64,000 nt of DNA from a virus (IMGVR_UViG_3300020156_000002:1-64000), one strand, 5' to 3'. Counted from the first letter of the stretch, positions 3,632-64,000 are shown. The notes: generated by a model from the letters alone, not told the origin. Program-made: numbers and translations.

Positions 3632-6008
3632 ATGAGTAAATTCACAAAAGTAGCAGTAACAAAGGATATTGAAGTAAATGGTAGATTAATTGTAAAACAG
3701 GGAACAAAAGGTATGATATTAAGATTAACAGAAAACAGACCATATGTAAGATTTAGCACCGGGAAAATGATAGAAATACCTGTACATATGTTATTAGCAT
3801 TATAGGAAACAGGAGGGTATCTTATGACAATTCAATTAACAATGAAACAGCTTAATGCAGTCAATGAAAGAATTAAACAATGGCAGTTATCATCACTTAG
3901 CAGATTAAGTCCTGGTAATATAGAGAAAGCACAAACAAATTTATTGTTCTTCAATATGGTAATTACTCAGGAAATGCAATGTCAAGTTATTGAAGATATT
4001 TTACAAATTGAAAGTAACATAGGTGATAGGATAACAGAATTGAACTAATAGAAAGCAGAGGTAATAAAATATGGATTATATGCCAAAATTTATAAATAAT
4101 ATGACTATCGAAGAATTAAAAACAGAAAAAGAAGGAATGTATAACAATGATTATCGTTATGGATGTGGTATTGATAAACCTAGATTATGGGACATTAATC
4201 ATACTATCAAAGTATTAGAGAGTAAATTGAACTAACATTTGGTTTTGATTATAGGGAGATATAAACATGATAGATTATCTTAGAGAAGGCATCATAACAG
4301 ATATAAAAAGTTTCTTAGATAGAGGTAAAGAAGTGATTATATCAAGTGGTTGTTGCAATGATACAGTTTTATCTTATAGAGAAGAAAAAGAACATATTCA
4401 TAATTGGGATGGTGGATATGATAAAACGGTATATATATTTATAACTACTGCTTGTATATTTCCAAAAGAAATTAGATTGGAAAATTATGAATACTGTGAT
4501 TTTGAAGAGTGGAACGGTTCAATTTTTATTGAAGTAACATAAAATTATAACTTAGATGGAGGGATATGAGAATATGAAAAAGGTAATGTTTAATGAACAG
4601 AAAAATGAATATTTTGGAGACTATGGAAACGGCATGATTAAGATAACACAAAAGGAATGTTATCATTTTATTAATTCTTTAGGTGTAAAATGTGACGGAG
4701 AAGAAAATGGATATATAATTTATATTAAATGTCGATAAAATTAAGAATTTATTCAAACAATAGTAATAATAAACAAACGTTTCACGTGAAACAATTTAAA
4801 ATTCAAATTATGGAGGTTATAACAATGATTAAGAAAATAGTAGATTTTATGATAACAGAAGGTACAACACAAACAAGTGAATGTAATTGGATATTTTACT
4901 TTGAAGAATTAGCAGAAAAATTCAACCTACATTTTGAATGGTTACAAGATAATATTGACGATATACTAGCGGAATTAGAAACACGTCAAGAAGTTTCACA
5001 AGCTGATTTTGAATCAGATAATAGTATATCAATATATTTTTATATTAATGCTGAATGGTGTAAAATAGAATTAGATTAGCAATCTCAAACCTTGCAAGCA
5101 TGGTAATGTAACAAGTAAATATTATAATATAGGAGGTTTTAAGGTATGAAAGAAAAAGAATACAAGATTGCCAAGGAATTTAATATTTTAGATATGGTAG
5201 AAAAGTTACAAAATGAACTATTACAAGTTGATGGAGTAACAGAAGTCGAATTTGATTTAAGCGGATTCTATGACAACTTGAATGAGGTTATTATATTAAC
5301 AAAATACAGCATTTGCGATACAGAAAAGTATTTTGAGAAACGTAAAAAGTTAAAAAATCAGGTTGTTGATATAGCAAAAGGAAACTTCTTAACACGTACA
5401 AGCGATAGAATAGAGGACTATGGAGAACATTTCTATTTTGTTTTTCATTGCTTTAAAGAATGGACTAATAAACAGTAAACACAGTATAAACAGAAAGGAC
5501 ATAAACACTATGAAAACAGTCGACCACAATGAAATGTCAATCACTTACAATGATGATAAGTTAACACATATCAAAATTGTGTATGGCGAATATGTAAGTA
5601 GTCGAGATATGACGGTCATATTTGAGGATATCATTGATAAAATAACAAATAAACTTGTTAGTACTGAATTAAAAGGATTTTATCACGGAGAACCAACTAT
5701 TGACGGAATAGAAACATTTTACGGCGAATTAAAGGCAGAATATACATTATAAATAGACCATAAAATCCTTGTTTCATCGCAACTTATAAACAAATAACAT
5801 ATTTCAAATATGAAAGGAAGTAAACAGAATGAGCGAATTTTTAGAAAATATCAGCAGTAAAAAAGTAATGATTATTGATACGGATGCATTAGAAGAAATG
5901 CTTCGTGATTTTGGTATTGATGCAAATATATTAAGTAGTAGCAATGGTTATTGCGAAGTAGAAACAAATGATTATACTTATTTAATCACAAAAGAATTAA
6001 CTAAATAA
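3632..6008 (+). other. array of small early hypothetical CDSs (3632-3805, 3824-4048, 4267-4542, 4556-4738, ~4825-5079, 5146-5478, ~5510-5752 and others)
   Basis: Consecutive + strand ORFs, each with a Shine-Dalgarno; no recognisable domains. Confidence 0.7.
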
Positions 6009-6056
6009 ATCAATTATTCTATCGTAAAATTTTATCTATAAAACTACAAAAATACA

Positions 6057-6085
6057 TTGACATATATGTAGTTATGTAGTAAGAT
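6057..6085 (+). promoter_or_regulatory. sigma-A promoter of RHH/tnpB unit
   Basis: TTGACA-17-TAAGAT, overlapped by ACTACA/TGTAGT repeats (possible autoregulatory operator). Confidence 0.65.
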
Positions 6086-6110
6086 ATAAGAGTAGATAGG
6101 AGGTGTCAAG

Positions 6111-6245
6111 TTGGCTGATAAAGCTATAAATATTAAGGTTGATGAAGAACTGTATAAACAAGTCAAGATTAAAGTAGCTACAGAAGATATAACCATAAAA
6201 GATTATATTATCAAACTAATTCAACAAGACCTTAATAAAAAATGA
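6111..6245 (+). CDS. ribbon-helix-helix (CopG/Arc-like) regulator, 44 aa
   Basis: RBS AGGAGGTG, TTG start; MADKAINIKVDEELYKQVKIKVATEDITIKDYIIKLIQQDL fits the beta-alpha-alpha RHH pattern. Confidence 0.7.
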   Translation: MADKAINIKVDEELYKQVKIKVATEDITIKDYIIKLIQQDLNKK

Positions 6246-6247
6246 AA

Positions 6248-6284
6248 ATAGGTGATGCTCCTGCAAGAGTTAATCATCACCTAT
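6248..6284. terminator. hairpin ATAGGTGATG...CATCACCTAT
   Basis: 10-bp perfect stem directly after the RHH gene; the upstream A-tract gives a U-tract on the minus strand. Confidence 0.6.
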
Positions 6285-6370
6285 CAAGTAAGAAATATGA
6301 ATAACATAAATCTCACAACTATGTTATCACATTTTCTAATTAAAATCAAATATGAAAAGGTGGTAAATAT

Positions 6371-6641
6371 TATGGAAAAATTAATTAATGAATTATTAGA
6401 AACGCTTAACACTTCTACTGGATATTGGATGACAGATAATAAAGAAATTAACACAGATAATACTATGTTTTGGCAAGAAGGTGAAGTGTTACACGTTGTA
6501 GATTGTAATAGTTTTGAAGAAATACATACAAAATTTAATGATATCGTTGATATAGTAATGAATAAAATTGATGATATGATTGAATCGGTTATAAAGTTTA
6601 AAGACAGACCATCATTAATAATATTTAGTTTCATTAATTAG
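6371..6641 (+). CDS. hypothetical protein
   Basis: ORF-track frame 6252-6641; RBS AAAAGGTGG suggests the start is MEKLINE near 6372. Confidence 0.6.
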
Positions 6642-6664
6642 TTGTTAATTAGCAAAGGAAGGAG

Positions 6665-7891
6665 GTGAAAAACTTGATAGTTAGCAGAATAGAAAACCAT
6701 GTAATTTCAAAGAGTCATATAATGTATAAAACAATTGATGAATATTGTTTCAGAGCAAAGAATTTATATAACTTAGCAACATACTATGTTAGGCAAGAAT
6801 TTATTAATAATGGTAAGTGGTTAAGGTATAAAGAACTTGATCCAATGTTACAAAAAGAGGACGCATATAAATTATGTGGATCACAAGCAGGTCAAATAAT
6901 TTCTCTTACGATTGATGACGTTTGGAAATCTTTCTTTGAATCTAATAAAGATTGGAAGAAAAATCCTAGTAAATATTTGGGTAGACCAAAACTTCCAAAG
7001 TATAAAGACAAAAACGGAAGATTTACTTATTCATTAAAAAATATACAATATAGAATTGATGAAGATTCTTATATATACTTTAGTTTTAAACCATTTAAAC
7101 AGTTTAACAAGCTATTTAAAACACAAGTAAATGAAAAGTTAAATCGTATTAGTTTTGTACCTCGTGGTTCTGATTATGTTATGTGCATATTATACAGTTT
7201 AGAAGTTCCAGACGTTAAAGAAGACAGTAATAATATTATAGGTATTGATTTAGGAGTTGACAATCTAGCAACTATTTCAAATAATATTGGACAACAACCG
7301 ATTATTATTAATGGCAGACCATTAAAATCCATGAATCAGTATTATAATAAGAAACTTTCTTTATTGAGAAGTGATTTAAAGAAGAAACATAACAAAGACT
7401 GGAGTAATAAATTACAGCAACTAACAGATAAACGAAACAGAAAAATAACATATTATATGCATTGTTCAAGCAAGTATATAGTTGATTATTGTATTCAATA
7501 TGATATTGATACAATAGTAATAGGGCTTAATAAGGAATGGAAACAAGAAAGCAGCATGACAAAGAAAACAAATCAAAACTTTGTTAATATTCCATATGAT
7601 AAGTTAATTAGACAGATACAATATAAAGCCGAAAACTATGGTATCAAAGTAATTATGACAGAAGAATCATATACATCAGGAACAAGTTTTCTTGACAGAG
7701 AATTACCAACAAAAGCTAATTATAATAAAGATAGACGGATTAAGCGAGGGCTGTTTAAGTCAAACACCAACAAATTAATTAATGCCGATTTAAACGGTTC
7801 ATATCAAATCATCAAGAAAGTATTTCCAAATGTTTTTACAGATGGGACAGAGGGCGTATATTTACATCCGGTTAGAGTTAATATAATCTAA
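6665..7891 (+). mobile_element. tnpB: IS200/IS605-family TnpB RNA-guided endonuclease (no tnpA in window)
   Basis: AKNLYN N-terminal motif; RuvC-I GIDLG, RuvC-II TEESYTS, RuvC-III NADLNG all present; hairpin GGGTT-ATAA-AACCC at 7897-7910. Confidence 0.9.
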
Positions 7892-7963
7892 CAAATGGGT
7901 TATAAAACCCAATAAATAGGATATTTTATAACCTATTATATTAAACAGAAAGGAAATAAAATC

Positions 7964-10900
7964 ATGAAAGTATTAGAAGTAATCAAAAATAATAGTAAAT
8001 TTGTAATCACAAAAAATGGAAATATATTAGCAATAAACAACGGAGATAAAATTCAACTTGGTAAAAATTCAAAATTAACAGAAGATAATATTCTTAATAT
8101 GGAAGTTAAAAAAGTACAAAATACAAAAGATTTTAATCAAGACTATCATGTAAATTATAGTTTAATAAGAGTATAAGGGAGGCAAATTATTATGAACAAT
8201 AACATTAAGGTAAAATTTCATTCAGAGGATAACGGAAACTGTCAGCAATTATTTAAAACGATAGATAAACAGGAAGGACAAAAATCTTATTATGCAAGAA
8301 GTTATGATTTAACCTGGTATACTGTTTCTGACCCACTAGGATATGCAGAATTAGATTATCCGGCATCAGAAGATATTACTTTTATTATATGTGATGATAA
8401 AGGGAATGAAGTATTTCAAAGTAGTAATTCAGATAAAGAAACATTTCCATTTTTGAAAAATGTTTGTCTTAGTGAATGGAAACAATATTGTACAGAACAT
8501 GAACAGAAAAATACACTAGAAAATAATGAGGTTAATTTTTTAGCTCATGCAATCGGTGGGAATCAAGTTGATAAATTAAGTAAGTGGTTATTAACTTTTA
8601 AAGACCCTGAATTATATGGAGAATCCGCAAAGGACTATGACGAAAACTGGACAATGTTCAGAATAGAAGAATTAAGCAGGAAAAGGCTTCATAAATTCAT
8701 GTATTGTGGTTTAAAACAAGAAATCACAGAAATTACAATGAGACATACAATTTGCAATGTTACATGGAAAGAATATTATAGCGGTCAAGAATATTGCGGT
8801 TCAATTTTTGATACTGATTATATTGGTACAATGTATTCACCAACAGAAGCAAAGGGGAAAGTAATAAAATTATTAAAAGAGATTTATGGAGATAGAAACT
8901 ATATTACACAAGTAACAGAAAGTTATGGAGCAATATACGAGAGACATTATAAACTAGGTAATGCAGCCGAATTATTACTTAATGGAAATTATAACAGAAA
9001 TTTTGTTAATAAATTAATTAATAAAGAGAATGAAAAGCATTCATTCTTTTCAAGTGAGAAAGAAGCAAGAGAAGCTTATAGGGATAAAGACGATAAATAT
9101 ATTCATAATTATAATTATCCTTACTTTTAATATTTACTATGCACATTATAAATAATATAACACGTTATAGTGTGCATGAATAAGTATTAAACAGTAACTA
9201 ATAACAATTTAATATTATAGGAGGCATTAACATGAATAATAAAATTTATAGTATAACAAGAGAATGTGAACTTGCAGGAGAATATTTTACTACATTTGAA
9301 ATTAAAGACGGCAATATAACACTTATTCAAGATTCATTTAATGGTATCGGATTCAGCGAAGAAAAAGCAAAACATTGTATAGAGAATTTACTTGAAAAAG
9401 TGAACATCTATTCATTAGATAGACTCAAAAGAATATCACTTGAAAATGATTTAAAAATTGCTATTGATGGCGATAGAGTAACATTTGGCAATCCAGATTT
9501 TAGCAAGTGTGTATTTGTTAAGTATGATAATTACTTTTATAAACAGATGGAGGTAGTAGCATAATGACAATATTATACGGAGATTATAAAAATATTCACG
9601 CTATATCAAGCGGAAATTTTGAAACAGAAGAACACAAGAAAGTTTTTGAAGTATTACAAAACGGAGAATTCAAGCGAACTGGCAAACGCATAAAGAACGA
9701 AGAATTCCTAAAACTGCCTAAAATATTTATCCGTCATTATTTATCAAATACTAATTGTTATAGTATTTATTCGATTGTCACAGGAAATCAATGTTGCGGA
9801 GGATATAGCTATTTATCACACTGTAAACAACATGAATGCAAGATTGACAGAGGACACGGCATTATTGTATTAGAACGAACAGACGATGATAGAACTACAG
9901 GAAAAGAGTGCGACATCACACCTGAAGAAATTAAACAACAGAACATTAATTATCATACTGAATTAATCAAAAGGTGTAATGACGGATTAAATGAAGAATG
10001 TAGCGAAGGAATTGACAAAAGCTTATAATCTTATGATTAATGATAGTAAACAGAAGTTAGCAAAGTTACAATAACAAACAATATAATACAATAAGTCAAT
10101 AGTCGGATAGGAGTGTAAACAGATGTATAAATACTTATGTCAAAGAATGAAACCCAACAAGTTAGGATTTAAAGAAACAATGTGGTTAGATAGCCCTTGT
10201 AAGGGATGGAGAGTATTAAAGAAAGTATATTGCAACATAATACAAGAGTGATTAAGATAAACAGAAAATAAATTTGTAATTTGATAGGCTTTAAGAAGCT
10301 AGAAAGAGAGGAAATAATATGACAAATGAACAAGTATATTGTGATTTAGCAGATGAATTACAAAATAATATTATAAGTGGTGAGTACGAATGGGAAAATA
10401 TAGCGGTAACAATGCCAATAGAAGGATATAATGGGTTTGGTATTGTAGTTTGGTGTGATGAAGAAATATTTGAAAAGTATTATACGGTAACAATAAGAGA
10501 AAATTATACACCTGACGAATGGGGAAATGATATTATATGTGAAAGTACAGATACTGAAGATTTTGAAGAGTTAGAAAATGTTGTTAATAGCGTTTTAAAT
10601 AAGTTTTATAATAAACAATATATAACACGATAAATAATAGATTTTATTAAAAGAATGGAGAATTGATAATATGAAAAAATTAAATTGGTATTTTAAACAC
10701 GGTACAATTTGTCATGTGTATTCAGTTTTATATGAAGATGAAAGATTTATTCTTGTACAGAACGATGAAACACAAAAATATAGCTTTGGTATGAAAAGAG
10801 ATTTTGGAACGCTTTGCGGTTTTCCAGTAGACCAATCTTGTTTATCAAGCGATAAAGCAGAAGAAGTTCTTAACGGATTCATTGAAGTAGATAAACAGTA

Positions 10901-10982
10901 TTTAGATACACTTGGAGAAATAGCAGAGGCTAATATAAAACGTTGGGAAGATATGATATTAAGTATGAAAGTAACAGTATAA
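7964..10982 (+). other. hypothetical CDSs 7964-8176, 8192-9130, 9232-9564, 9564-10028, 10319-10633, 10671-10982
   Basis: + strand ORFs with RBS; no recognised domains. Confidence 0.7.
9139..9177 (+). other. 13-bp intergenic RNA hairpin (processing site or terminator candidate)
   Basis: ATGCACATTATAA / TTATAGTGTGCAT with one G-U pair. Confidence 0.55.
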
Positions 10983-11031
10983 ATAGCAGATAAAAAGCAG
11001 ATTTTATTATAATATGAAAGGATGGAATTAA

Positions 11032-11766
11032 TTGAAATATATTAAACAGAACGAAAGAATCGGATTAACAAAGATAAACAATAACGGATCAGAAATGAAG
11101 ATAATTAATGTATTACCAGATGACAAAATTATAGTCCAATTTCAAGATGAATTTGCATGTACAAAAGAAGTACACTGGAATAACTTTAAAAAGGGAAATG
11201 TTATGAATCCATATGATAGGAAAAATGGAGGAGTCGGGTACATAGGAGAAGGAAAATATAAAACAAAAGTTAACGGTAGAAATACAAGGATACACAATAC
11301 ATGGAATGATATGTTATCGAGATGTTATTCGGAAACAAAAAGAAATCAGTATATAGCATATGAAAACTGTGACGTATGCGAAGAATGGCATAACTTCCAA
11401 GTATTTGCAAAGTGGTATGAAGAGAATTACTATAGTATTGGAAATGGACGTATGCATTTGGATAAAGATATTATATATAAAGAAAATTATCTATATGCAC
11501 CTGAGAGATGTATTTTTGTTCCACAAAAAATAAACATGATATTTATGCAGAAGCCTAATAAATTCAATCTACCTAGCGGTATATCATTAACAGACACGAA
11601 TAAATATCATTCAAGTTATAATGGTAAAGGATTGGGAAATTATGATACATTAGAAGATGCTATATTTATACATGATGAAGCAAAAAGAAAACATATAAAA
11701 ACTATTGTGAATGAGTATGGAACTTCACTTCCGGATAGAGTAAGAAATGCATTACTAAATTGGTAA
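11032..11766 (+). CDS. HNH-like phage homing-endonuclease-family protein (paralog 1)
   Basis: WNDMLSRCY...VCEEWHNFQVFAKW...HLDKDI...YAPERCIFVPQKIN signature. Confidence 0.7.
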   Translation: MKYIKQNERIGLTKINNNGSEMKIINVLPDDKIIVQFQDEFACTKEVHWNNFKKGNVMNPYDRKNGGVGYIGEGKYKTKVNGRNTRIHNTWNDMLSRCYSETKRNQYIAYENCDVCEEWHNFQVFAKWYEENYYSIGNGRMHLDKDIIYKENYLYAPERCIFVPQKINMIFMQKPNKFNLPSGISLTDTNKYHSSYNGKGLGNYDTLEDAIFIHDEAKRKHIKTIVNEYGTSLPDRVRNALLNW

Positions 11767-11810
11767 TAGATTATATTAAATAGCCTAAACAGGCAGAAAG
11801 TGAGTATACA

Positions 11811-14158
11811 ATGGATAGTTTAAAAGAAAAAATAGCAAAAGATATATTAAAGACATTATCATATGATGAAATGACGGAAGAACAGGAATCTATAGTTAAA
11901 GACTATGAAACGGAACAATATAAAAAATGTGTTGACGAATTAAGGGATAAGAAGACACCAGAAGATATAGAGAATATTATTCATGAATGGTGGTTGAATT
12001 ATGAAATATCTGACGGAACAGAAGATGATTTATTAATGTATTTATATAAGAGCAAATAAAAAACAGGTTTTATAGGCTTATAGATAGCCAGAAATAGGAT
12101 TAGTGATTTCGATTTAATTATGTTAGCAACCGCATAAAAAAGTAAATTTGAAGGAGGATAACACAGTGGGAGATATCAAAATAGTACTACCTTACGAAGT
12201 AATCAAAAAATGTAACAACTAATAGCAAAAACCAAAAACAGTACATAAAGGAGTAACAAGTTAATGAAGCAATTATACATAAATTATAAGAACAGGGCAG
12301 CATACAAAGTTAGTCAATTAAAGCGTTATTTGAACCGATACACAGCGTTAGAGATAATTGGGGTTACAACTATATTGCTTATCGGTTTATGGGGCGTTTT
12401 AAGCTTTATAGACATCATAATGAATAATATGAACGATTGTAAATATACAAGTTGGAACTTAATTAACTTATTACTTGATATGATGCAATAAACAATAATA
12501 TTAAACAAATACTTGACTGAATTGAAATGTGGTATTATAATGATATTAATAGAACAGGAAAACATTGTAACAAACACATAAAAATGATATAATAATTATT
12601 GCTCTAAACAGAAACAGAAAGGGAAAAGGTGAACAGTATGGAAAATATTATTAAAGAATTAAAAGGAAAGAATTTTAAAGAAGGCAGAAATATTATTGAA
12701 TCAAATTTTAAAGTGGATAACAGCAAACTTTATTCAAATGTTGAAGATGGCAGAATTGATATCTATGAGTACGTTGAAGATAATGATAATTGGATTTGTT
12801 TCACTGCTCCATGTGAAGAAGTGGAAAATGACCAGCCTAATATTGATTATAGCAATGGCTATTGGACTGTAAGTATTGACAATGAAGTAACAACCGAATT
12901 AGAAATTAAACGATATTGATTTAAGTAGAACCATACTGGAAACCAATTAAAAGAAAAATGGTAACAGCAATTCAATAATAGTCAATTCAGAGAGGAGAGA
13001 AATAAATTGGAAATAGGAGATATTTCTTTTAAGGGAGAATTAATATTAGATATTAATGAAAATTATATGTTGACTGTTCCAATAGATTCAATATTAAATA
13101 TGATGAAATCTATGGATACTAGAAGTTATTCTATATTTACTATGAATGGAAAAGAAATGTATGCTAAATTATGGTTAATGGATAAAATTGATTCAAAAAT
13201 ATATTTTACTCCATATCGAAACGTTGACAAAGAAGTATGTGATAAGATAATAAATGAGTATCTGAAAAATTATTTAAGAATAGGAATGTAATATAAATTA
13301 TTGATTTTATAAGAAAATTAAATAAAAAATAAAAGGAGATTTATATTATGAAAAATGAATCAAATTTATCAATTAGGGTTGAATTACCTAGCTTTACTAG
13401 TAATGACAAAACAGACAGGTTTGTAGTAATGAGAACCAAACAAGAACTAAATAAATTATTGAGTAAGTACAATGATATGATATCTGTTAATACAGTTGGA
13501 AATGGAATAATTCAGATTATTGGAAATGATTTAATGAAAAATAAAGCTATATCGCTAAAAGAAATTCAAGATAAGATAGCAAATTATTCTTTTAAGTATG
13601 CAGTAGTAATACCTACTATTGATACAAATTATGATGAAACATTAGAAAATCTATTGCTAGATGATTATACTTTCTCATTTAATTAACAGGCAATGAATTG
13701 ATTATTTGATTAGGAGGGTTTAAACATGATACCAATTCAAGTTGTTTATACAGAGAATGGAAAAGAAAAGTCATCATTAGATGAACATAGAAGACGAGTT
13801 GAAATATTGCGACATAATCAAGAATTAATCAAAAGATGTGACAAAGAAGCAGAACAAAAGCGGAACAAATGAACATTTTATTAGGAGGAAATGAACTATG
13901 AATTTAACTATTGAAAATAAATTTGGTCTGACAAATGAACAGATTAACATTCCATTTATGGTTAACAGTGTTCCAATAGGTGTTATAACTAATGTTACTG
14001 ATTTAGAAATCAACATTTTAATATGGGAAAGATTTATAGGAGTTGAGAAAGAATTTGATAATATCTTAGACGTAAACACTAAAAGTAAAGTGACAGCTAT
14101 ATGTATAGGGGATAAACTATCTGATTCCGTTAAAATGAATATGTTTGGATTAGATTAA
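11811..14158 (+). other. small hypothetical CDSs (11811-12059, 12264-12491 with one TM helix, 12629-12919, 13007-13291, 13348-13686, 13898-14158)
   Basis: RBS-preceded ORFs; promoter TTGACT-17-TATAAT at 12513-12541. Confidence 0.65.
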
Positions 14159-14162
14159 TAAA

Positions 14163-14219
14163 GCTGCACTGACGAGTCCTAAATGGACGAAATAGGAGCG
14201 AATAACTCCTATATGTAGC
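14163..14219 (+). ncRNA. type I hammerhead self-cleaving ribozyme
   Basis: Stem I GCTGCA/TGTAGC, core CTGACGA, stem II GTCC-TAAAT-GGAC, GAAA, stem III TAGGAG-CGAATAA-CTCCTA, cleavage triplet AUA (cut after 14213). All conserved core nucleotides are present. Confidence 0.92.
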
Positions 14220-14280
14220 AGAGTAATTAATAAACAAATTAACTGCCTAGTAGGGCAAAATAGAAAGGATAAAAAATAGC

Positions 14281-14583
14281 ATGATTAGAAAATTATTTTT
14301 ACTTGTTAAGCATGTGCCATTAGGAACTCAATACGTAGAACGTGATTTTAAGAAATTCATTATTAAAAAACATGATAAAGTAAATGATGATCACCCATTT
14401 AAAAATGTACATGAACTTGAAAAGAATATTAACAATATAAATCAATATGGGAATATATTAAAGCCTATATTGGTTAGTAAATGTGATTTTAGTAATAAAT
14501 ATGTAATAAGAGGGAATATAGCTGCTTATTATGCATTAAAAGAAAACATGATTAAAAGCATCCCAATTAAATTAGTATCGTAA
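14281..14583 (+). CDS. ParB/Srx N-terminal-like small protein
   Basis: LKPILV...YVIRGNIAAYYALKE...IPI resembles the ParBc fold; degenerate. Confidence 0.45.
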   Translation: MIRKLFLLVKHVPLGTQYVERDFKKFIIKKHDKVNDDHPFKNVHELEKNINNINQYGNILKPILVSKCDFSNKYVIRGNIAAYYALKENMIKSIPIKLVS

Positions 14584-50700: not shown

Positions 50701-53700
50701 TAATAGAGTTGGCGGTACTTGTTAATAAAAGGAGAGATTAAATGAATTTTAAATACATGAATAAAGAAGCTTGGATGCTTGATGAAGATGTTTTATACAA
50801 GGGAATTGTAAAACGTAATTGGCTTCGACATATTTTTATTCCAAATAGTCACGCTGGAGGATTTTCATATCAGTATGTAACACGAAAAGATATAGGCAAG
50901 ATATTATTCAGAAATGATATACATATTGTTTATTCTGGATTAGGACATTTGGAAAGAATATACACTGATAATTACTCTAAATATAAAATTAATGAACTAT
51001 GTAATGAATTAAAGGATGAAGCGAGAAGATGTTGTAATAAATAAAACTAGATAAAATGCAAATTTGAAGCGCATATTGGAGGTGATTAGATGAGTCAAGA
51101 AGAAAGAAATGAACTAACTAAGTTATTAGATATTGAACCAAAATATTTAATTAATTACATAGCGGATTTAATTGTTGAAAATGAAGATGATATAGCATAC
51201 TCAATTGAACATAAAGATAGAGAACTATTAGAATCAATTATTGAGAGATATATTTATTAAGAGAGGAGTACAACATGCAAGAAATATTTAATGAAGCTGT
51301 CTATGTCGTTGTAATACAAACTGAAAATGATACCGAATATTTATCAAAAAATTATTATAAGAATAAACATTCTAAACATACGAAGTGGAGAAAAGTATTT
51401 ATAAATACTATTATTACTACAAACAAACTAAATAAAGCTGCAAGATTTAATTCTTTAGAATCAGCTAGAAAACAGATTGAATATTTGAAGATAGAAAATG
51501 TTGTTGGAATTGCAACCGTAGAACATAAACTAGAACTAGTTGATATGTAAGCAGATGAAATATCAATTTGGTAGTGAATTTTAGGAGGTGATAGTAATAA
51601 AAAGAGGCAAAAGAGTTGAAATTAAACCAGTTGATGATGCAATGAATACAGATCAACTAATTTATGTATCTTCAGCTAATGAAAAATACGTAGAGTTCGT
51701 AAAAGAAGTCAGGAAACATCCGTATAAATTATATGAATATTGGACAGGTAAAAAGTTACCAATATGGCAGCGATTATATTTTGATACTATAGGCAAGCTA
51801 AAGAAGACTGATTATGAAAAGCAACAGAAAGCCATTAATAAAGCTATAAAACCATATATTAAGTAATTATATTAAACATTAAAAAGGAGAGAACTATGAA
51901 AAATGAAGATGCACTATTATCATACAAAAAAGCATGTGTATACCAAGTAGCATTAGAAATGAATTGGTTTCCGTATAATGAAGAAAAAGAAAATATATAT
52001 GATTATGCAAAAAGAAACTTAGTGTATGACTATATATTCTTACTCAGGTGTTTGAAGGTTATAAATAAAAAACCAAAGTTAATGAAACAAGTATTGGAAT
52101 TAATCAAAACAAATGAGCAATTGTATAGTTGCTTTGATTTGTAAGTCAAAATTAAACATCATTTTACTTTGAGTTGGAGGTGATTAAGATATTAAGTGAT
52201 ACAAGCAGAATAGTATATGCTATGTGTAAGTGTATTTTATTTCCAGAAAGTAGTGTCTTGGTTACATTTAAAGACGAGGAAGAAACCAATAACGCATTTA
52301 AAATAGCTATGAAATTATGCAGTAAAGATGTAAGAAAAGAAATATTAAAGATCAATAAAACGAATATAGAATTTAAAAACAAGAGCAACTTGACATTAGA
52401 TTACTCGAAACCAAAAGTTGAACCTGAATATATAAGAGGACACAGATCAAAACTGCCACTACTATATTATGATGATTTTCATATTGATAATGATATGTTA
52501 GAGGAAGTATTAAAGCCATATATTAAAGAAAGGAATATTAAACAATGAGTAAAAGTATTGTAGATTTGTTTTATGAATTAGATGATGAAGTTTTCTACAA
52601 CTTAATAGTAAAGAAACTTCCAAACAACTTTAAAATTGAAATTGTAAACAAGAGTTTATGTGAAAATCCGAAGAATGCTTATATTGATGTGGCTTTTGTG
52701 TTTAAAGATATGCCAAAACCAAGAGAAGTATTTTATACTCACATTTACTATGGTGAATTAGATATTTTGTTAAATGGTAGAAACGGACAGAAACATTAAT
52801 TAAAGTTCAGGAGGAAGTATTAATGCTAAAAATTAATGGTTTAAGTTTAACTTGGTGGGTAACAGAAATTATAGGATTGACACTGTTTATTCTAACAATA
52901 ATATATGATATATATATATTAACTTGACATTGTTCAATAACACAGATGTAACAATAAGTCAAAAAGTTACATGTGTTGCAGGTATGCTAATGATTTGCTA
53001 TGGATGGAGTTTCTTTATTGATTGGTTAGTACAATCATCAAGAAAATTTATAAGAAAACATACTAAAACCAAGAATGGATACTCAAAAGAAAAGATAGCA
53101 CTTATTAAGAAGCAAATGGAAAAGTCGGTTAGTCATTTACATAATGAGGAATAATATAAGACAATCAATCTGCACTTTCATAGCAAATTAGAAAGGAGAA
53201 AATATGTTCAAAAATATTAAATGGGAATTAATAGACGATAGAACAGCTTATTTGTTAGACGATATAGGGCGACTTGGATCATTGAAACAATATAAAGGAA
53301 CAAATGAATATGAATTTGTTAGTAGGTCTGATATTGAAATAAGTGATATTGAAGCTGAAGACATGGAAGATGCTATTAAAAAATGTACAGAAGAAATATA
53401 TGATTTTTGCGATACTAAAATAAGTACATATAACAAAATATTGAGCGAGATAAATAAGATAAAATAATACATCTATCAAGAAAGGAGAATATATGATATA
53501 CAAAAAGTCGTGGCACAAAGATACTAAAAATTTTAGCTTCATATTTACTGGATATTTTTTATTAGGAATTGTGCCATTATATATTAAAAGAGAAAGCTAT
53601 TAATCAAATTGACGATTCTATATAAAGTGAGGTGAATTAAAATGAATAGATATAAAGTAAAATGGACAGATGGGTTTCATTATGTCATTGACACTAAAAA

Positions 53701-55390
53701 CAATGATAAGATTGTTAGTAGCGGTTATCATAGCAGTAAAAGTGCAGAAATAGTGTGTGACAAAAAGAACATGAATAATGATTTAGGTTGTATGCTTAAC
53801 ATGAATTTATAGTTTCATTCTGATTTAGAAAGGAGAATGGTTATGGCAAAAGTACATAAAGTAACAATGTTTGTTACAGATATTGAAGGAGATAGTGATT
53901 TAGATGATTTAATTGAACATGGTTTACGCAGTTATGACTTGTATCCTAAGTTTATCAAAGTAGAATCATCGAAAGAATTTGAATGGGATGATGATTTAGA
54001 AATTAATAAAGTTAATGGAAAAAAGGAAGATTTTGAAGATTATTTTAAATAACTGATAAGTTCAGGTATTGATTATAAGAAGATGTGATACATATGTGTA
54101 AATCAGAATTTAATTGTGTTTTTGGCAACTGCGATGAATGTGAAAATGATAAAGAAACTTGTGTATATTATGAAGAATGTAGTATGTGTGAAAATGCTGA
54201 TTATTGTGAAGAGTCAATTGAATAACTCTTTCATTATGATTAATAATATTATACAGAAAGGAAATGAAGATAATGAGAGTAGCATATATGAAAGATTACA
54301 TAAAAGAAACAAATAATGTACATACGAATGGATATTATATTTTTGTTGATAGTGATACTTATGTAATGCCAGATCAAGAAACAGGATATAAATTATTTGA
54401 ACAGCTATTAGTTAGTGGATACATAGACCTAAGAAAGTATGATAGAAGATAATCAAAGATGATTTCTATGATAAGAAAAGGAGATTGAGAATGAACCAAG
54501 ATAAGTATTTTATAATTACGTCATCAGAAGATGGCACAACTGTTGAACAAATAACAAAAGAAGAATTAATGAGTAGAATTACTCCTGATGAGGATGGCGA
54601 TTTATATTATGGTTTAGGAGCAAAATTTTTAAATGAATTACCAGAATGGAATGACGGATATCCCAACATGTCATTTGAAGATGTAATTATTATTAAAGGC
54701 GACTTTGTAGTACCAAAAGAAAAGAAAGTTGTAACACAATATGAATTATAAGACCATGAAACAATGTGTTTATTTGGATTAGAAAGGAGAATCGTTAATG
54801 GATGATAATGATATTGGATTAATTAAAGAAACAGAAAGTTATGATTTATGGTTTGAGCCAATTACAGACGAAATAAATGGATTTGTAATTAGAGATAAGA
54901 AAGGTTTTATTAAACAAATTTACATGCCAGATAGATAATAAAATGTGATATTTATTAGGATTGAGGTGATAACATGGAAAAATACTTAGATAATGAAGAT
55001 GAAAGGTTAAGAGATAATTTTAAAATGCAATATATACATAGCTGTAATACTTGTAAAACAAGGTTTGAATGCACCCTAACTAATAGTAAGATTATAACAT
55101 GTGACAGGTATTGGGCTGATTTAAACTATAATAAATAATAATAAACGCAAAGAAGTGACAAGATGAAAAATACATATACATACGACGATTTATACGGAAC
55201 ATTGTTACATAAAAATGAAGATGATACAGAAAGAACTTATTTCATTATCGGATGTTTGACGAGCAGGTTTCGCCGTTGGATGTTTGTAGAGGGATGGAAC
55301 AAGGGTAGTGAGAAAGAATTTTATTATAATAACATAAAGGGATATAAAATAACATTTAAAAGAAAGGACACAAATAATGCAAATAATTAA
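47762..55390 (+). other. dense array of ~25 small hypothetical CDSs, many bounded by 18-bp palindromes
   Basis: ORF track plus AGAAAGGAG RBSs; several zinc-ribbon proteins. Confidence 0.7.
52174..52548 (+). CDS. short protein resembling an internal fragment of a terminase large-subunit ATPase
   Basis: YAMCKCILFPESSVLV...IEFKNKS...RGHRSK..LYYDD.....ML..VLKP resembles terminase motifs; no Walker A. Confidence 0.4.
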   Translation: MEVIKILSDTSRIVYAMCKCILFPESSVLVTFKDEEETNNAFKIAMKLCSKDVRKEILKINKTNIEFKNKSNLTLDYSKPKVEPEYIRGHRSKLPLLYYDDFHIDNDMLEEVLKPYIKERNIKQ

Positions 55391-57518: not shown

Positions 57519-58024
57519 TGAGGTATCATAATATAACACACGACGATATGAAAAACGGAGATGGATTGCGTGTTGTTTTGTGGGTTTCTGGATGTGATCA
57601 TAAGTGTAAAGGTTGTCAGAATCCGATTACATGGAATCCTAATGACGGATTAGAATTTGATTTAGCAGCTAAAGAGGAGATTTTTTCACAATTGGAAAAG
57701 GAATATATATCTGGAATAACATTTTCTGGTGGTGATCCATTACATGATAACAACTATGAATACGTAAGAAAACTAATACTAGAAATAAAAGAAAAATATA
57801 AAACAAAAACAATATGGCTATATACGGGTTATGCATATAATGATTTATTATGTTTATATCCAGAAAAATATGAAGTAGTAAAATTATGTGATGTTTTAAT
57901 AGATGGTGAATTTGTAGAAGATATATTAGATGTAAATTATCATTGGGCAGGTAGCGTAAATCAAAATGTAATTGATATAAAGAAATCACTAGAGAGAAAA
58001 GAAATTGTCTTGTGGAATAGTTAA
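57518..58024 (+). CDS. nrdG: class III RNR activase (radical SAM)
   Basis: NGDGLRVVLWVSGCDHKCKGCQNP, SGGDPL, WLYTGY. Confidence 0.96.
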   Translation: MRYHNITHDDMKNGDGLRVVLWVSGCDHKCKGCQNPITWNPNDGLEFDLAAKEEIFSQLEKEYISGITFSGGDPLHDNNYEYVRKLILEIKEKYKTKTIWLYTGYAYNDLLCLYPEKYEVVKLCDVLIDGEFVEDILDVNYHWAGSVNQNVIDIKKSLERKEIVLWNS

Positions 58025-58047
58025 TAAATATCTTGATCGATTGACTC

Positions 58048-61000
58048 TTGAAAGGAGGAATTATGGAATTTGGTAAATATCGTGGAGACGGTGTAATTGC
58101 TTTTGGTATTACAAAACTACCATATGATGAAAAGGAAACTTATCAAAAAGCACAGTATTATTATTCGGGACAAAGATACAATAAAGGATTTCTGTTTCAT
58201 TCTGGAGATTATTATTTAGAAATATTTACAGAAGATTTAAGTGAACTAGATATTGATAATTTTAAATTACAAGATAGAAGAATGAGCAAAGATTATATTA
58301 TGAAAACATATAAGTATTTGTATGTAAGAGTTGTTATACCGCAATAAATCTACTATTTTATCAGCTTTAAGAAAGGAGTAATAATCTATGATTGATAATT
58401 TTATACATGAATTTAACTCATTGGATATAAGAAAAGCAAAACAAGGATGTAAATGTAAGGTGTGCGATAATTCATTAACTGATAAAGACGATATTGTATA
58501 CTTAAAATCGTTCAGGCTATCTGCACAACCATTTCATATTTGTTTAAACTGTTGGAAAAATATAAACGAATTAGTTCAAGAATATCAACAGCAACAAGAG
58601 TAAGCAGATAAAATGTATCTTCTATCACGTTTTAAGAAAGGAAAAATAAATGACTATAAGAGAACAAATAATGAAGGAATGTGAAAACCACAAAACAAAC
58701 TTTCTCCGTATAGATGACTTATACGGGGAAGAGAATGATTATAATGAGGCTAAAAAAGGTGGATATAATTTTCAATCTTGCCCACAATCTTATGAATGTT
58801 TGAAAAATAAAGAAGAACTATGTTATACAGATAATGAATTATCAGAAGATACAATGAAGCAATGTCTACAATGCTAGAAGAACGCATTGGGAGAACAATA
58901 AATATGGTATTCAATTAAATTTTAGGAAGGAGAACTATATGGAAGTATTGATTATAGCAATATCAACATTAGTAGGATATTCACTAATGTCAACAATATT
59001 ATACATATTAACAAAAGAAAATGATGATGTAGCTATTGTCTTTGGATTAGGTGTGGTAGGTGAATTGTTAATATTTATTTGTTGGGTTATACAAAAAACG
59101 TTAAACTGGAATAAATATCACAATAAGCGTTCTATTGTTGAAATTGAATCTACAGGAGAACGAAAGTGGTGCAATCTAAAAGACACTGAAGATATTAGTG
59201 GTTGGTTTAAAGGATATAAACTGGTCAAAAGATATGCTACAAAGGAAGAATGGAAATTATTACAACCATTTGATAAAGAATTTATATTGGCAAGTAAAAG
59301 AAATTGTGATAATTGTATCCATAATGATAAAGAATGTCGTTCAGATGGAACAGGCTTGTGTGATAAAGATTTAGATTACTTTGATAAGTTTGAAAGTAAA
59401 TAAATGCAATATTCAGTTGGGTTTTAGGAGGTTTATATGAAGGTAATATACGGGGTCGACGATTGTAAAATATATCTACTACCAACTATTGATATATCAT
59501 TTGTATTCAAATATGTAGCCATTGAATTTTTAAGCTTTTATATTGAGTTTAATTGGAGCAAATAAATACAGAATTTAATTACAAATTAAGGAGGTAATCA
59601 TAATTAATATAAGAATCGGAAGTTTTGTGTATTTTAAAAATAATCCAAATAAGAAATATATAGTTGTATCAGAGAAAATAGATAGTATTGAACATGTCAG
59701 AATTCTTGGAATTGTAAGAGTGGGAAGATTAAATATACCATTCTTACGAGTTAGATATGTGTTTGAAAATGCTTTAGTAAAAACAGTTTGTTAAATAAAT
59801 TTAGGTGCCAGAAAGGAGAGTCTATGCCAATTATATTAAAAAGTGATACATATCAAATAATAGAAATTAAAAAGAAAACATCATCCAAATTCTTTAAGAA
59901 TCTGCAATTAGGCAGCTTATTAAAATTTGAAGTTGAGCTAAAACATGTCGGAAGTGGTGACCATGGAACATATATAACCGCAACAAATATAAACACTAAA
60001 GAAACAATTAATAAAACTTTTAACCAGATGGCACGATTGCTTGAAAACTTTGAGCTGGTTAAAGCTAATTCATATCAGGGTTTACAACTGGAACCAACAG
60101 AAAAAGAAATCTTTGGATATACAGAATAGGAGAATAATATGGATATAGACTTCTCGCAAAAATACTACAAAGGGGACATTGTATATCTTGCACGATGCAT
60201 TAACAGTGTAGGAATACAAGAAGTAGTTAAATTAAAACTCCGCACAATAGAGCCTGATTATATGGTAGGATGTACTGAAAAGAGTGTAGTGTTTAATATA
60301 GGTAAAGATTGGATTGGAAATGTGTTTAAAAATAAGAACGAAGCATTTTCATACTTAAAAACTATTACTAAAAAAACATACAAAGAGAAACAAGATGTTC
60401 CTTGTCAATTAGTTGATGAAGACGAGGAAGAAACTGATGATTTAGATTCATACATAGATGGTAATAAAGAGGACGGTGAAGAAAACGAGTAGTTATTTGA
60501 TAACAAATTATAAAGACAAGTACCAATTAAAAGCAGAAATAGATCAAACCACTGGTGATTTCTGTAGAGATGAAAATGGTAATTTAGACAATTATAATGA
60601 CATATGGATTGTTTGTGATGGTAAAGGCAAAGTGTTTCATTTTGGACATTCGACATTGTTATACTATACGTCACGACTTATAAAGGGAAGAAGTATTGTA
60701 AAAGAACTGCAATCATTTGATAAAGATTTAATATTTGACATTGAGGAAACTGACAAAGAAGTGTTATTTAAGTTTAAGGCAAATAACTTTGAAACAATTG
60801 CAAATTATATTAAACCAAAACCTGTTAGAAGTAGAAAAGATAGCGACAAAGAACCAAAAGGATTATCACCATTTTCAACCAAACATTTACGTAAAAAGTG
60901 TATTATACCTACTGAAAAATTAGCATTATATAAAGAAATTACATCTTGTTTAGGCAAAGACAACTTAACTGTTTATAACGAAATTAATAAAGAATTCTTA

Positions 61001-61592: not shown

Positions 61593-61604
61593 AGTTTTAT
61601 AATA

Positions 61605-61727
61605 AATAATATTAAACAACACTTGACAAGGTAATATGAATGTGATATTATTAGTTTATCAGCTAGGAACAAAGCTTGTAAACAGAATAATATCACATTT
61701 TTTGTTAATAAGTAATAATAATAAACA
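61605..61727 (+). promoter_or_regulatory. promoter flanked by two operator motifs and embedded in a 14-bp hairpin
   Basis: AATAATATTAAACA 61605; TTGACA 61623, 17 bp, TG-a-TATTAT; AATAATAATAAACA 61714. Confidence 0.7.
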
Positions 61728-61754
61728 AACAAAACAAGAAAGGAAGCAAAAAGT

Positions 61755-62120
61755 ATGAAATTAAAACATTATGACACTACATTAAATAACACAATAAGAA
61801 TGCTAAATTCTATGGAAATTTTAAGTTTAGATTATACAAAGGCAGATGATTTAGTACATATTAAAGACATTAAAATTCCGCCAGACTATGCAGCTACTCA
61901 ACCATTAGATTATAAGATTCGTAGATATACTAGATTTTTTAAAGCTAAAGGGTATTTAAGTAAGCCAATAGTTGTATTTGTGGAATCTAACGAAAAGGGA
62001 TTACATAACAAATTGATACTAATCGACGGGTATGTTCAGTATTTAATTGCTAAGAAATATGGAATGGAATTTGTACCAGTTAAATACATAGATATTAATG
62101 ACTACATAAACAAAGAGTAA
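61755..62120 (+). CDS. ParB/Srx N-terminal-like protein
   Basis: IKDIKIP...KPIVV...LIDGYVQYLIAK..G...VPV. Confidence 0.6.
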   Translation: MKLKHYDTTLNNTIRMLNSMEILSLDYTKADDLVHIKDIKIPPDYAATQPLDYKIRRYTRFFKAKGYLSKPIVVFVESNEKGLHNKLILIDGYVQYLIAKKYGMEFVPVKYIDINDYINKE

Positions 62121-62340
62121 ATAGAAATAATAAACAAAACAAGATTGCATTCGCAATATTTAAGGGGTGGTTAAAATGGTAAACGGAAAAACATTAGAGG
62201 ATGAACTACATTACATTGATGATTTTTTTGATTCTATGGATAGTAAAGAATTTGAAGAAATGTTAATTGAATGCGGCGCAAATGAGATAAAAGGATCATG
62301 TAGTAACTGTACAGATACAAAAGATGTATTTGATTAGGAG

Positions 62341-62925
62341 TTGAAAGGAGAGAAAGAGAGTGTGTGGAAAGATGAATTACATAAAATGCTGCTAGATGGA
62401 ATTGTAACGTTAGTTGATATTGGATTCAATCACATTGAGATAAATGATATTGTTCTTAATAATCGAATGAAAACAACTTTGGGATGTTATTATCATGATA
62501 AAAAACTTATAGAAATTTCAACAAAGCATTTTAAGTATAGTGATAAAGAAGAGGTTATGAACACTATAATTCATGAGTTATCACATAATATATGTGATCT
62601 TAAATACGGTTCTAATATGATTAATAATGGACATTCAAAAGAGTGGGAAGAAATAGCTGAATATATATCGAATAATACAAAATACAAAATCACTCAATAT
62701 TCAGAAGATAACACTAACTTTAAAAGTATACCAAAAACTGAATATTTTATACACTATCTAAAATGTGACGAATGTAATTATACAGATTCATTAATTTCAA
62801 AATTCCAAGACTATGATAAAGTTAAAAAGAAGAAAAAATGCATAGCCTGTGAAGTAGCTAATAATAGAGTTAATTATATGGATTGTATAAAGACATATCA
62901 CGATCATTATAAATATTCAGTATAA
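62341..62925 (+). CDS. SprT-like zinc metalloprotease
   Basis: NNRMKTTLG, TIIHELSH, GHSKEW, C-terminal CxxC pairs. Confidence 0.8.
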   Translation: MKGEKESVWKDELHKMLLDGIVTLVDIGFNHIEINDIVLNNRMKTTLGCYYHDKKLIEISTKHFKYSDKEEVMNTIIHELSHNICDLKYGSNMINNGHSKEWEEIAEYISNNTKYKITQYSEDNTNFKSIPKTEYFIHYLKCDECNYTDSLISKFQDYDKVKKKKKCIACEVANNRVNYMDCIKTYHDHYKYSV

Positions 62926-62968
62926 AATCTAAATTTTATTACCTATTAAAAGAAAGAGAGGATTAATT

Positions 62969-64000
62969 ATGATTACAGTAGATAACAAATTTGAAGTTGG
63001 AGAAAAGGCTTATACGGTATACAGAGTACCAGTTCACTACAAATGTCCTGTGTGCGAAGGAGAAGGTAAATTCGTATATAATGGATATGAAGTACAATGT
63101 AGAAAATGTAGCGGTGGAGGTAAATTACATGATGTACATAACACGCTACTTGCTCCTACAGAAGTAACAGTATCCAGTATTAAAGCATCATATAGTGGTA
63201 CGAACGTTTCTATAAGATATAAAGTATATAGTAGCAAAAATATTAATAGTAGATCACAAGAAACGATGTTTAAAACATTAGAAGAAACTGAAAACTATTG
63301 TAAGTGTGTCAACACAAAAGAAATATCATCGGAGTTTTAAAGCAGAGAAAATGTGTAATTGATTAAAATTTGGAAGGGAGAATTTATGAATTTAATATTT
63401 ATTGGAGCTGAAAGATCAATCGATTTTGTTTCATATGACTTTAATGAAAGTATTACAAAAGCCTTTAAATATAGTGATAATTTAACTATATGGGATGTTG
63501 ATAATAATAGAAGATTATTAGAAGTTTATTGTGAAGAGGGAGATCTCAACAATATTGAAGAAGAATTAATTAACTGTGGGTTGTTTGATAGTCTTCCAGA
63601 AGCAAGAGTTACTTTTGATAATATTAGAAATGAGTACGAAGAAAGATGGAGAAAAAGGGATGAATATTATGAAGATATGGAGTTAAAACAAAATATAGAA
63701 ACATATCTAAAAGTTAAATCCATGATTGACAATGGAGAGTTAAGTATATAGATAAAATGCTTTTATTGGCTTTTAGAAAGGAGATTTATAATTATGTATG
63801 AAGAAATAGAAGAAGAATATCAACAATTCCTATATGATATTCAAGAAGAAGGTTTTATTTTTGGAAGATACTTGGATGAATCTGATTATGAGGATGAATA
63901 TTGCCATAATGACATTGATAAAGCCAAAGATATTTTTGTAAATAAAATAAAAGAGTATCTTAAGTTAAATAGACCATCGGAATATATAGTTACTAGTGGA
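62969..64000 (+). other. hypothetical CDSs 62969-63340 (CxxCxGxG zinc motifs), 63359-63751 and a partial ORF from ~63794
   Basis: ORFs with RBS. Confidence 0.65.

Follow-up and report, generated by a model that had tools for sequence, protein, structure and literature searches.

Repeated sequences placed beside small genes have precedents in integrons and in several groups of phages, and these are the systems against which we set the element described here, an 18-bp motif with the core ATAAAW-N6-TTTKAT and a fixed 6-bp spacer, of which ~60 copies lie between small + strand genes in a 64,000-nucleotide stretch of viral DNA (IMGVR_UViG_3300020156_000002:1-64000; hereafter, the window). The attC sites of integrons measure 57-141 bp and fold in single-stranded form; their recombination, under the action of IntI, takes place at a fixed point of the core site. 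In Bacillus phage SPbeta, a repeated element called SPBRE is said to have been first named and defined in the 1999 genome paper by Lazarevic. MrpR, which has a tyrosine-recombinase fold and is the master repressor of SPbeta, is reported to bind ten promoters that bear SPBRE, and chromatin affinity purification with sequencing (ChAP-seq) of MrpR in SPbeta lysogens is described as giving just ten peaks, all of them at SPBRE (PMC10516654). From T4-type phages, promoter-early stem-loop (PeSL) cassettes have been described (Arbiol 2010, PMC2839356; Comeau 2014, PMC4122927). The 17-bp repeats of Cluster O mycobacteriophages are reported with no assigned function and with one gene indel that is bounded by the repeat (PMC4351075).

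The first-pass annotation of the window had described some 60 copies of an inverted repeat of fixed geometry, written there as ATNAAW-N6-WTTNAT, and this observation is upheld by our counts. For this pattern the window yields 27 matches where 9.6 ± 3.3 would be expected, and the number 27 was reached in 0 of 100 shuffles. With the spacer length left to vary, ATAAAW-Nk-WTTNAT is found 21 times on the + strand at k=6 (2.6 ± 1.5 expected), and only 0-5 times at any other k from 0 to 15. The AT-rich intergenic DNA is a fairer background for such a test, and here (114 gaps, 19,816 nt, shuffled inside each gap) there are 20 copies at k=6 against 0.99 ± 1.05 expected and a maximum of 5 in 300 shuffles, with 0-1 copies at k=4, 5, 7, and 8. 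A 36-nt position weight matrix (PWM) refined from the strict copies gives scores of at least 12 at 64 + strand positions in the window and at 83 distinct places in the genome, as compared with ~3 per strand in shuffled genomes. Since this matrix was trained on the same data, its scores are partly circular, and the unbiased evidence is that of the pattern counts. The list of 60 sites in the first-pass annotation survives for the most part: 22 agree fully with the pattern given there, 26 deviate from it at one position, 10 at two, and 2 at three; by PWM, 48 score at least 12 and four lie between 10 and 12, but eight fall below 10 and are doubtful (starts at 19516, 20719, 21473, 31812, 32308, 49284, 53604, and 58898). 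Moreover, 16 further + strand matches with a PWM score of at least 12 are absent from that list, the best being at 32832, 27664, 15705, 22512, and 32081.

The motif had been taken for a palindrome, but it is in fact directional, with ATAAAW-N6-TTTNAT occurring 17 times on the + strand and 5 times on the - strand. This asymmetry is also visible among the 27 exact matches, in which nine copies have G at position 16 and one copy has C at position 3, the mirror position. We found no covariation between the arms: over 83 sites, the complementary counts for every mirrored pair equal the column-shuffle expectation (all p>0.08), and the pairs 3-16 and 6-13 are complementary in just 36 of the 83 sites each. 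A hairpin, whether of RNA or as a cruciform, is therefore not the feature that is conserved. The spacers of all 27 exact copies differ. Around the motif, the conserved unit extends to ~45 nt and comprises the stop codon of the gene before it, the motif with its flanks, and the extended Shine-Dalgarno sequence belonging to the gene after it; the same unit was independently recovered by a repeat search as families D2, D3, D8, and D20. Its conserved flank positions, for which no selection had been made, are G/C at -3 and G-R-A at 21-23, and are followed by the extended Shine-Dalgarno sequence AGAAAGGAG. The motif is thus real, and its geometry, direction, and position are plain from the window.

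As for placement, the motif comes after the upstream stop codon and before the next ribosome-binding site (RBS). In most cases the left arm starts at -3 to +9 nt from the preceding stop codon, which makes up nucleotides 2-4 of the site in 17 of the 60 listed copies (the first-pass annotation gave at least 12), and the right arm ends 20-30 nt upstream of the start codon in 33 of 58. Sites occur in 21 of the 29 gaps of 40-60 nt, in 11 of the 30 gaps of 25-40 nt, and in none of the 27 gaps shorter than 25 nt. The replication operon (36000-48270) had been called empty, and indeed contains no match with a PWM score of at least 12, even in its gaps of 47, 54, and 64 nt; nrdDG, also said to be free of copies, has one exception at 56356 (PWM at least 12), inside nrdD. 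Three sites, at 6005, 22512, and 31037, are located behind the last gene of a unit and have no cistron downstream.

The individual sites, all on the + strand and given here with their PWM scores in brackets, begin with 4226-4243 (13.0), which overlaps the end of the upstream open reading frame (ORF), and continue with the exact copies at 4735-4752 (15.2) and 5760-5777 (19.4), and with 6005-6022 (15.8), at the end of a transcription unit and with a sigmaA-like promoter downstream. Then come 7912-7929 (18.5), 10268-10285 (22.7), 10630-10647 (16.6), 10990-11007 (21.1), 12056-12073 (23.4), 13293-13310 (14.7), 13693-13710 (18.2), 13864-13881 (17.1), 14968-14985 (19.5), 15171-15188 (14.1; overlapping an ORF end and newly found, that is, absent from the first-pass list), 15482-15499 (15.8), and 15705-15722 (14.0; newly found). 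Weak sites are located at 17545-17562 (11.1), 17928-17945 (11.5; the symmetric variant ACCAAA/TTTGGT), 19716-19733 (11.0), and 35495-35512 (10.9). Between the first and last of these lie 18225-18242 (21.9), 18776-18793 (12.9), 20227-20244 (13.1), 20432-20449 (16.4; the symmetric variant ACCAAT/ATTGGT), 21264-21281 (12.5), 22512-22529 (13.9; newly found, behind the last ORF of its unit and upstream of the promoter at 22602), 26941-26958 (12.2; exact and newly found), 27664-27681 (15.3; newly found), 28477-28494 (20.0), 28659-28676 (20.0), 29312-29329 (17.0), 30497-30514 (12.4; newly found), 31037-31054 (15.8; behind an ORF and followed by a - strand gene), 32081-32098 (13.8; newly found), 32526-32543 (15.9), 32832-32849 (21.7; newly found, the reference copy of repeat family D2), 33107-33124 (18.5), and 34998-35015 (18.5). 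The site at 35948-35965 (20.6) precedes the replication operon, beyond which the best-scoring copy is found at 48282-48299 (24.0). It is followed by 48633-48650 (15.2), 48858-48875 (12.4; the symmetric variant AACAAA/TTTGTT), 50090-50107 (16.1), 50428-50445 (18.1), 51051-51068 (21.1), 51555-51572 (18.1), 53063-53080 (12.1; newly found), 53164-53181 (18.7), 53459-53476 (14.3; newly found), 53801-53818 (12.1), 54056-54073 (13.8), 54217-54234 (14.4), 54452-54469 (13.8), 54756-54773 (14.5), 54938-54955 (20.5), 58024-58041 (12.6), 58344-58361 (16.5), 58608-58625 (20.3), 59400-59417 (17.8), 59562-59579 (15.2), 62317-62334 (13.0), 62922-62939 (14.5), and 63346-63363 (17.6).

The window makes up the opening 64 kb of a virus record of 130,653 bp (whole genome, G000) that has direct terminal repeats and is rated complete. 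Its G+C content is ~28-29%, and in the whole genome nearly all genes up to ~75 kb are on the + strand, with the structural half on the - strand. Within the SPbeta-like group this phage stands at a distance from SPbeta itself: in blastp and tblastn comparisons it has in common with SPbeta the DNA polymerase (23% identity), a YonO-type RNA polymerase (23.6% identity), the large terminase (37% identity), a YorJ-like protein, the portal, the tape measure, and a YomM-like tyrosine recombinase. Other relatives compared were a 135,850-bp provirus from a metagenome (G001), whose DNA polymerase is 73% identical to that of the window, and the genomes G006 (DNA polymerase 64.5% identical, tblastn) and G003 (37%).

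The same class of motif is present in several of these phages. In SPbeta upstream regions, an unbiased dyad count ranks AAAA-N6-TTTT and its register shifts at the top, and TAAAW-Nk-WTTTA occurs 41 times at k=6 as against 4-15 times at other k. When ATAAAA-N6-TTTTAW was counted in forward/reverse orientation with the reversed pattern as control, we obtained 26/17 (control 2/1) for SPbeta, 32/21 (1/1) for Goe13, 24/18 (1/1) for phi3T, 27/20 (1/1) for Goe11, 16/30 (1/2) for G001, and 20/20 (3/1) for Clostridium phage c-st. Relative to gene direction, the TTTTAA form is sense in 13 copies and antisense in 3 in SPbeta (60-134 kb), and 19 versus 3 in G001 (23-77 kb). Copies of the motif class are also found in the late operon of SPbeta that is transcribed by YonO. 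In G006 and G003, on the other hand, the motif has no spacer-6 peak, and so it is patchy among lineages and no by-product of base composition; such patchiness argues for a lineage-specific partner. Relatives reached through nrdD or a 230-aa accessory protein are mostly without the motif, a clear spacer-6 excess being seen in 7 of 123 loci. In one IMG/VR contig related through the 230-aa protein (L150), we noticed a hint of GAAA-N6-TTTC upstream of genes (4 versus 0.1 expected, in a small sample).

Selection on the motif can be read from 61 fully aligned orthologous site pairs of four Bacillus phages, in which differences amount to 4 of 732 positions in the arms, 7 of 366 in the spacer, and 95 of 4865 in the 40-nt flanks. 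The arms differ from the flanks (p=0.004) and from the spacer (p=0.049), and the spacer does not differ from the flanks (p=1). Hence, purifying selection acts on the arms and leaves the spacer free, a pattern expected of two contacted half-sites.

We favour, tentatively, a reading of the motif as a protein-binding gene-boundary element on DNA that tunes expression gene by gene, with gene exchange as a consequence; binding by a protein, action on DNA rather than RNA, and control of expression are what we infer here. A DNA-binding-protein site was among the alternatives offered in the first-pass annotation, and we judge it to fit best. On this reading, a conserved and directional cis-element would mark cistron boundaries in large SPbeta-like temperate phages of Firmicutes, and a sequence-specific protein would read it linearly on double-stranded DNA, with one half-site (ATAAAW, TTTKAT) for each subunit or domain and with the 6-bp spacer left uncontacted. 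The putative binder may tune or silence genes one by one, in the fashion of stoperators. Exchange of genes would proceed by ordinary or relaxed homologous recombination together with selection for intact units, and not by a dedicated integron-like recombinase; because the same short sequence lies at nearly every accessory-gene boundary, it is there that related phages would exchange genes.

Several points weigh against the DNA-site reading. In lysogens, the peaks of MrpR lie solely at SPBRE, which has a different sequence, and so MrpR is not the binder of the 18-bp motif. A screen for a binder by co-occurrence gave no protein clearly common to the motif-bearing phages alone. Given the sites in the late operon read by YonO, any transcription-linked role must suit two unrelated polymerases. 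Moreover, a directional motif on the sense strand beside a Shine-Dalgarno sequence fits a role at the RNA level about as well.

That RNA-level role is nearly as good an explanation, and we regard it as a real if doubtful possibility. Here, the motif would act as a linear and unstructured mRNA signal between cistrons, be recognised by a translational regulator or an endoribonuclease, and set the translation or stability of each cistron. Its sense orientation, its narrow placement between stop codon and Shine-Dalgarno sequence, and its occurrence in both the early units of SPbeta, read by the host polymerase, and the YonO-read late operon are all in keeping with such a signal, as is the right arm in G001, which directly abuts the Shine-Dalgarno sequence (0-3 nt). 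However, this last distance varies by lineage, being ~10 nt in the window phage, and neither hairpin nor covariation accompanies the motif. The sites at 6005, 22512, and 31037, with no cistron to follow, are likewise awkward for an mRNA signal, and the partial dyad symmetry better suits a DNA-binding dimer.

Rather less probable as the main role is that of a recombination linker, by which, much as for PeSLs, the sites would provide short homology for the exchange of accessory genes among co-infecting or resident SPbeta-like phages. The evidence that bears on this comes from the SPbeta family, in which the breakpoint test was run since no close relative of the window phage was found: megablast against the phage collection gave no match to its replication operon, the MrpR-like protein had no relative in the viral contigs searched, and a DNA-polymerase scan of genome contigs found nothing, the DNA-polymerase relatives being at best 86% and 73% identical in amino acids. 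Breakpoints were defined as the ends of blastn homology blocks (at least 150 bp and at least 88% identity) in every ordered pairing of SPbeta, phi3T, Goe13, and Goe11; the precision of such ends is a few nucleotides, the gene calls are crude, and the four genomes do not give independent counts. In SPbeta, 15 of the 121 distinct breakpoints fall in a strict site ±3 nt, windows that make up 0.68% of all nucleotides and 3.5% of the intergenic ones. Within the gaps that hold a site, 15 of 30 breakpoints are so placed versus 6.9 expected (p=0.001), and 14 of the 33 intergenic sites bear a breakpoint. For the four phages together, with the non-independence just noted, 54 of 276 intergenic breakpoints are at sites versus 10.3 expected. 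Of 61 homology starts, 27 cluster around the first base of the site, at positions -3 to +2; of 52 homology ends, 23 cluster at positions 15 to 20, where the site has its last bases. In the alignments, the whole site, spacer included, moves now with the downstream gene and now with the upstream gene, and units of site, RBS, and ORF are seen beside differing upstream genes; one hybrid site in phi3T has the junction within it. The sites are, in other words, preferred module boundaries in the SPbeta family.

Three laboratory-evolved hybrids of phi3Ts and SPbeta point in the same direction, in that parent-specific sequence stops at a site in 8 of 10 edges of identical blocks (4 of 5 distinct edges). 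Their parent switches occur, bar one joint, within identical blocks of 1,364 to 18,195 nt. The remaining switch, at ~54013 in Hyb3phi3Ts-SPbeta, is abrupt, with no shared sequence and no site near it, and looks like an illegitimate joint. A linker is favoured by this piling up of junctions at site edges, by the siteless gaps of 47, 54, and 64 nt in the replication operon, and by the PeSL precedent (PMC2839356, PMC4122927). But 6-bp arms offer very little length for homologous exchange. Of the 13 simple insertions seen among SPbeta, phi3T, Goe11, and Goe13, 0 have a site on either side and 6 have one on a single side, and selection for intact units alone would likewise put junctions at the edges of functional elements. 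In addition, the strong purifying selection on the arms, and their conservation at 23% polymerase identity, suggest an immediate function.

The first-pass annotation had gone further and suggested a model in which a phage tyrosine recombinase uses the sites as its core sites, and excises and inserts single site-RBS-ORF cassettes in an integron-like manner. What stands of this model is that the sites are real markers of gene boundaries and that breakpoints in the SPbeta family gather there; the excision itself we consider improbable. Two arms of 6 bp around a 6-bp spacer do resemble recombinase core sites, mosaic junctions do fall at sites, and the genome has three genes with a recombinase fold. 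The candidate that had been named is a tyrosine recombinase gene at 16172-17146 on the + strand (Pfam Phage_integrase, E 1.6e-27), the product of which aligns to a XerC-like chain (4a8e) with R, HxxR, GH, and Y retained, has only a weak match to IntI4 (E 5e-4), and has a homologue in G001 at 33% identity. The second encodes an MrpR-like repressor with a tyrosine-recombinase fold (24527-25516, + strand; Pfam MrpR_N_CB, E 7.1e-12), 25% identical to SPbeta YopR over 80 aa. The third is the YomM-like gene, which lies in the late or structural region of each phage (96844-97893 in G000, outside the window; yomM in SPbeta; 111304-112335 in G001), the G001 and SPbeta proteins being 33% identical over 339 aa (E 1e-54).

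Against this, junctions are located at the outer edges of sites and not, as had been expected, in the N6 spacer, where none of the 113 breakpoints between -45 and +62 nt of a site was found. The spacers all differ, and spacer heterology blocks most tyrosine recombinases. G006 and G003, both of them without the motif, carry a YomM-like gene too, and no attC-like folded sites are seen. With no insertion bounded by two sites, and with laboratory hybrids that crossed over within long stretches of identity, support for the integron-like reading is only partial. No circular or deleted forms, variants, or joints were found over 4001-24000 in the sole public DNA run that holds the window (labelled soil metagenome, possibly its source sample), in which one contig covers the region. 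Between G000 and G001, alignment is confined to core genes (11 high-scoring segment pairs, 12 kb, 67-76% identity), and the accessory genes common to both are not consistently flanked by sites. It is a long shot, then, that the 6-6-6 sites are working sites of a YopP/16172-type or YomM-type recombinase that tolerates spacer heterology and moves promoterless genes between phages. If true, this would amount to phage-borne, integron-like gene capture, with conserved arms that hide the true crossover points from sequence comparison.

Fainter still is the case for a promoter of a phage-specific transcription class, with -24/-12-like hexamers used by a sigma-like factor or a YonO-type polymerase. 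The motif is bipartite, directional, and upstream of genes, as such a promoter would be, but contact of the right arm with the Shine-Dalgarno sequence in G001 would put the start site within or after that sequence, and the sites keep to the gaps and start from the stop codon. YonO is reported to start the SPbeta late genes at one promoter (PMC5467207), and on the strength of that single late start site a YonO promoter was rejected. A sigmaA promoter was rejected as well, because the hexamers are a poor match to TTGACA/TATAAT as -35 and -10 and separate promoters are found at 12513, 22602, 26063, and 61623. As for a small stem-loop (terminator, RNA stabiliser, or cruciform), the consensus is an imperfect inverted repeat and two SPbeta copies (2622-2651 and 116406-116431) were annotated stem_loop by their depositors, but with an A-U-only stem of at most 5-6 bp, an A/G mismatch at positions 3-16 in ~40% of copies, no G+C-rich stem, and no U tract, it is the least credible reading of all, and an intrinsic terminator or other hairpin was rejected on the A/T-only arms and the lack of compensatory changes over 83 sites.

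The window also has a second repeat, TAATAATAAACA, with 9 forward and 0 reverse copies in the genome; exact copies in the window are at 4764, 14617, 29346, 35989, 39884, 46310, 46416, and 61716. The four sigmaA-like promoters named above are separate from the 18-bp sites, and immediately upstream of the -35 of each is a near variant of this repeat (AATAATATTAAACA or AATAATAAACA). An exact copy precedes a -35-like TTGACA near 46330 (in the 46302-46452 gap), and copies also precede some ribosome-binding sites. SPBRE, as derived here from ten upstream regions, is CAAATAATATGTATA and lies inside sigmaA-type promoters. We had considered whether the 18-bp motif is SPBRE itself and rejected this, as CAAATAATATGTATA is unrelated to ATAAAA-N6-TTTTAW and the 18-bp sites lie between cistrons. 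The sites of ComK, CodY, Fur, IHF, NusG pausing, and MazF are not known to resemble the motif. It is TAATAATAAACA, rather than the 18-bp motif, that may be the better candidate for an SPBRE analogue, i.e., the putative operator of the MrpR-like repressor, and by analogy the MrpR-like protein would bind an element other than the 18-bp motif.

The MrpR-like gene belongs to a block that opens with a phage-borne MazF/PemK toxin gene at 22798-23202 (E 1.7e-23), followed by a gene of 418 aa and then the MrpR-like gene (to 25516); homologues from this block (22798-25516) are found in G001 and G003. The lysis-lysogeny switch of phi3T and SPbeta is described as acting through the host MazF (PMC10769878), and the window phage seems to carry its own copy. 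Among the accessory genes is a TnpB-like one at 6665-7891 (OrfB_IS605 and a Cas12f1-like TNB domain). Paralogous genes at 11032-11766 and 21760-22503, of ~245 aa each and 70% identical over 253 nt, are the sole clear intragenomic gene duplication in the window; G001 has a single 107-aa gene to which the two are related. Finally, a perfect 14-bp palindrome, GTTTCACGTGAAAC, is located at 4779-4792; it matches 15 of 16 positions of the parS consensus, and is a possible loading site for ParB/SMC.

With at least 40 copies in SPbeta, a 50-year-old model phage with good genetics, and ~60 in the window, the 18-bp motif persists across phages whose DNA polymerases are just 23% identical. Were its reader found, gene control or gene exchange in large temperate phages of Firmicutes, including Clostridium phage c-st, would gain a global layer. 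The motif is also a testable handle on how small accessory genes, anti-defence genes among them, stay swappable units.

With regard to novelty, the first-pass annotation had presented the system as undescribed. For the motif itself this agrees with the SPbeta literature searched, including the accessible parts of PMC10516654, PMC8270828, PMC5467207, and bioRxiv 10.1101/2021.11.22.469490, which contain no description of it (the 1999 genome paper was outside this search), but as a concept it is already in print in the form of PeSLs, stoperators, and Cluster O repeats.

In comparison with integrons, the window likewise has mostly promoterless single genes, each adjoining an imperfect inverted repeat in one orientation. 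However, unlike attC, the 18-bp sites are unfolded and without arm covariation, and their junctions are found at either outer edge. The geometry of arms and spacer fits that of a tyrosine-recombinase core site, whereas 27 differing spacers are at odds with its identical overlap. SPBRE, in turn, is also a repeated intergenic element, belongs to the same phage group, and has a binder with a tyrosine-recombinase fold (Kohm 2023, PMC10516654), but the ten bound copies described there are inside sigmaA-type promoters, and the sequence derived from them is unrelated.

Closer resemblances are found elsewhere. According to the published descriptions, PeSLs share with the 18-bp motif a short conserved sequence that recurs between small non-essential genes in plastic regions, and end-points of indels or replacements between close relatives that fall at the motif, as is seen for the 18-bp motif in the SPbeta family. 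They differ in that a PeSL combines a strong sigma70-like promoter with a terminator stem-loop and forms mini-circles; the 18-bp motif has neither promoter nor hairpin, its two-site footprints number 0 of 13, and no circles were seen. The 17-bp dyad repeat of Cluster O mycobacteriophages, as reported, is similar in its more than 30 short inverted-repeat copies with a variable centre, many of them intergenic, but its arms are invariant, G+C-rich, and unoriented, with one third of the copies in coding DNA (PMC4351075), while the 18-bp motif has degenerate, A/T-rich arms and forms oriented sites that are coupled to the stop codon and Shine-Dalgarno sequence. Like the 18-bp sites, the stoperators of Cluster A mycobacteriophages are described as many short, asymmetric sites that lie in narrow intergenic gaps and are aligned with transcription in a temperate phage; yet they are 13-mers that the immunity repressor binds as a monomer, and the same site serves as operator of the lytic promoter (PMC9283540). 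In contrast, the 18-bp motif has two half-sites (6-6-6) and is missing from the sigmaA-like promoters, where another repeat occurs, and the master repressor of SPbeta, MrpR, is reported to bind another element, SPBRE (PMC10516654). Lacking the features of a promoter, a terminator, a repressor operator, and attC, the 18-bp motif is thus a member of none of these families, and the best reading of the comparison is that its nearest counterparts are stoperators, PeSLs, and the repeats of Cluster O.

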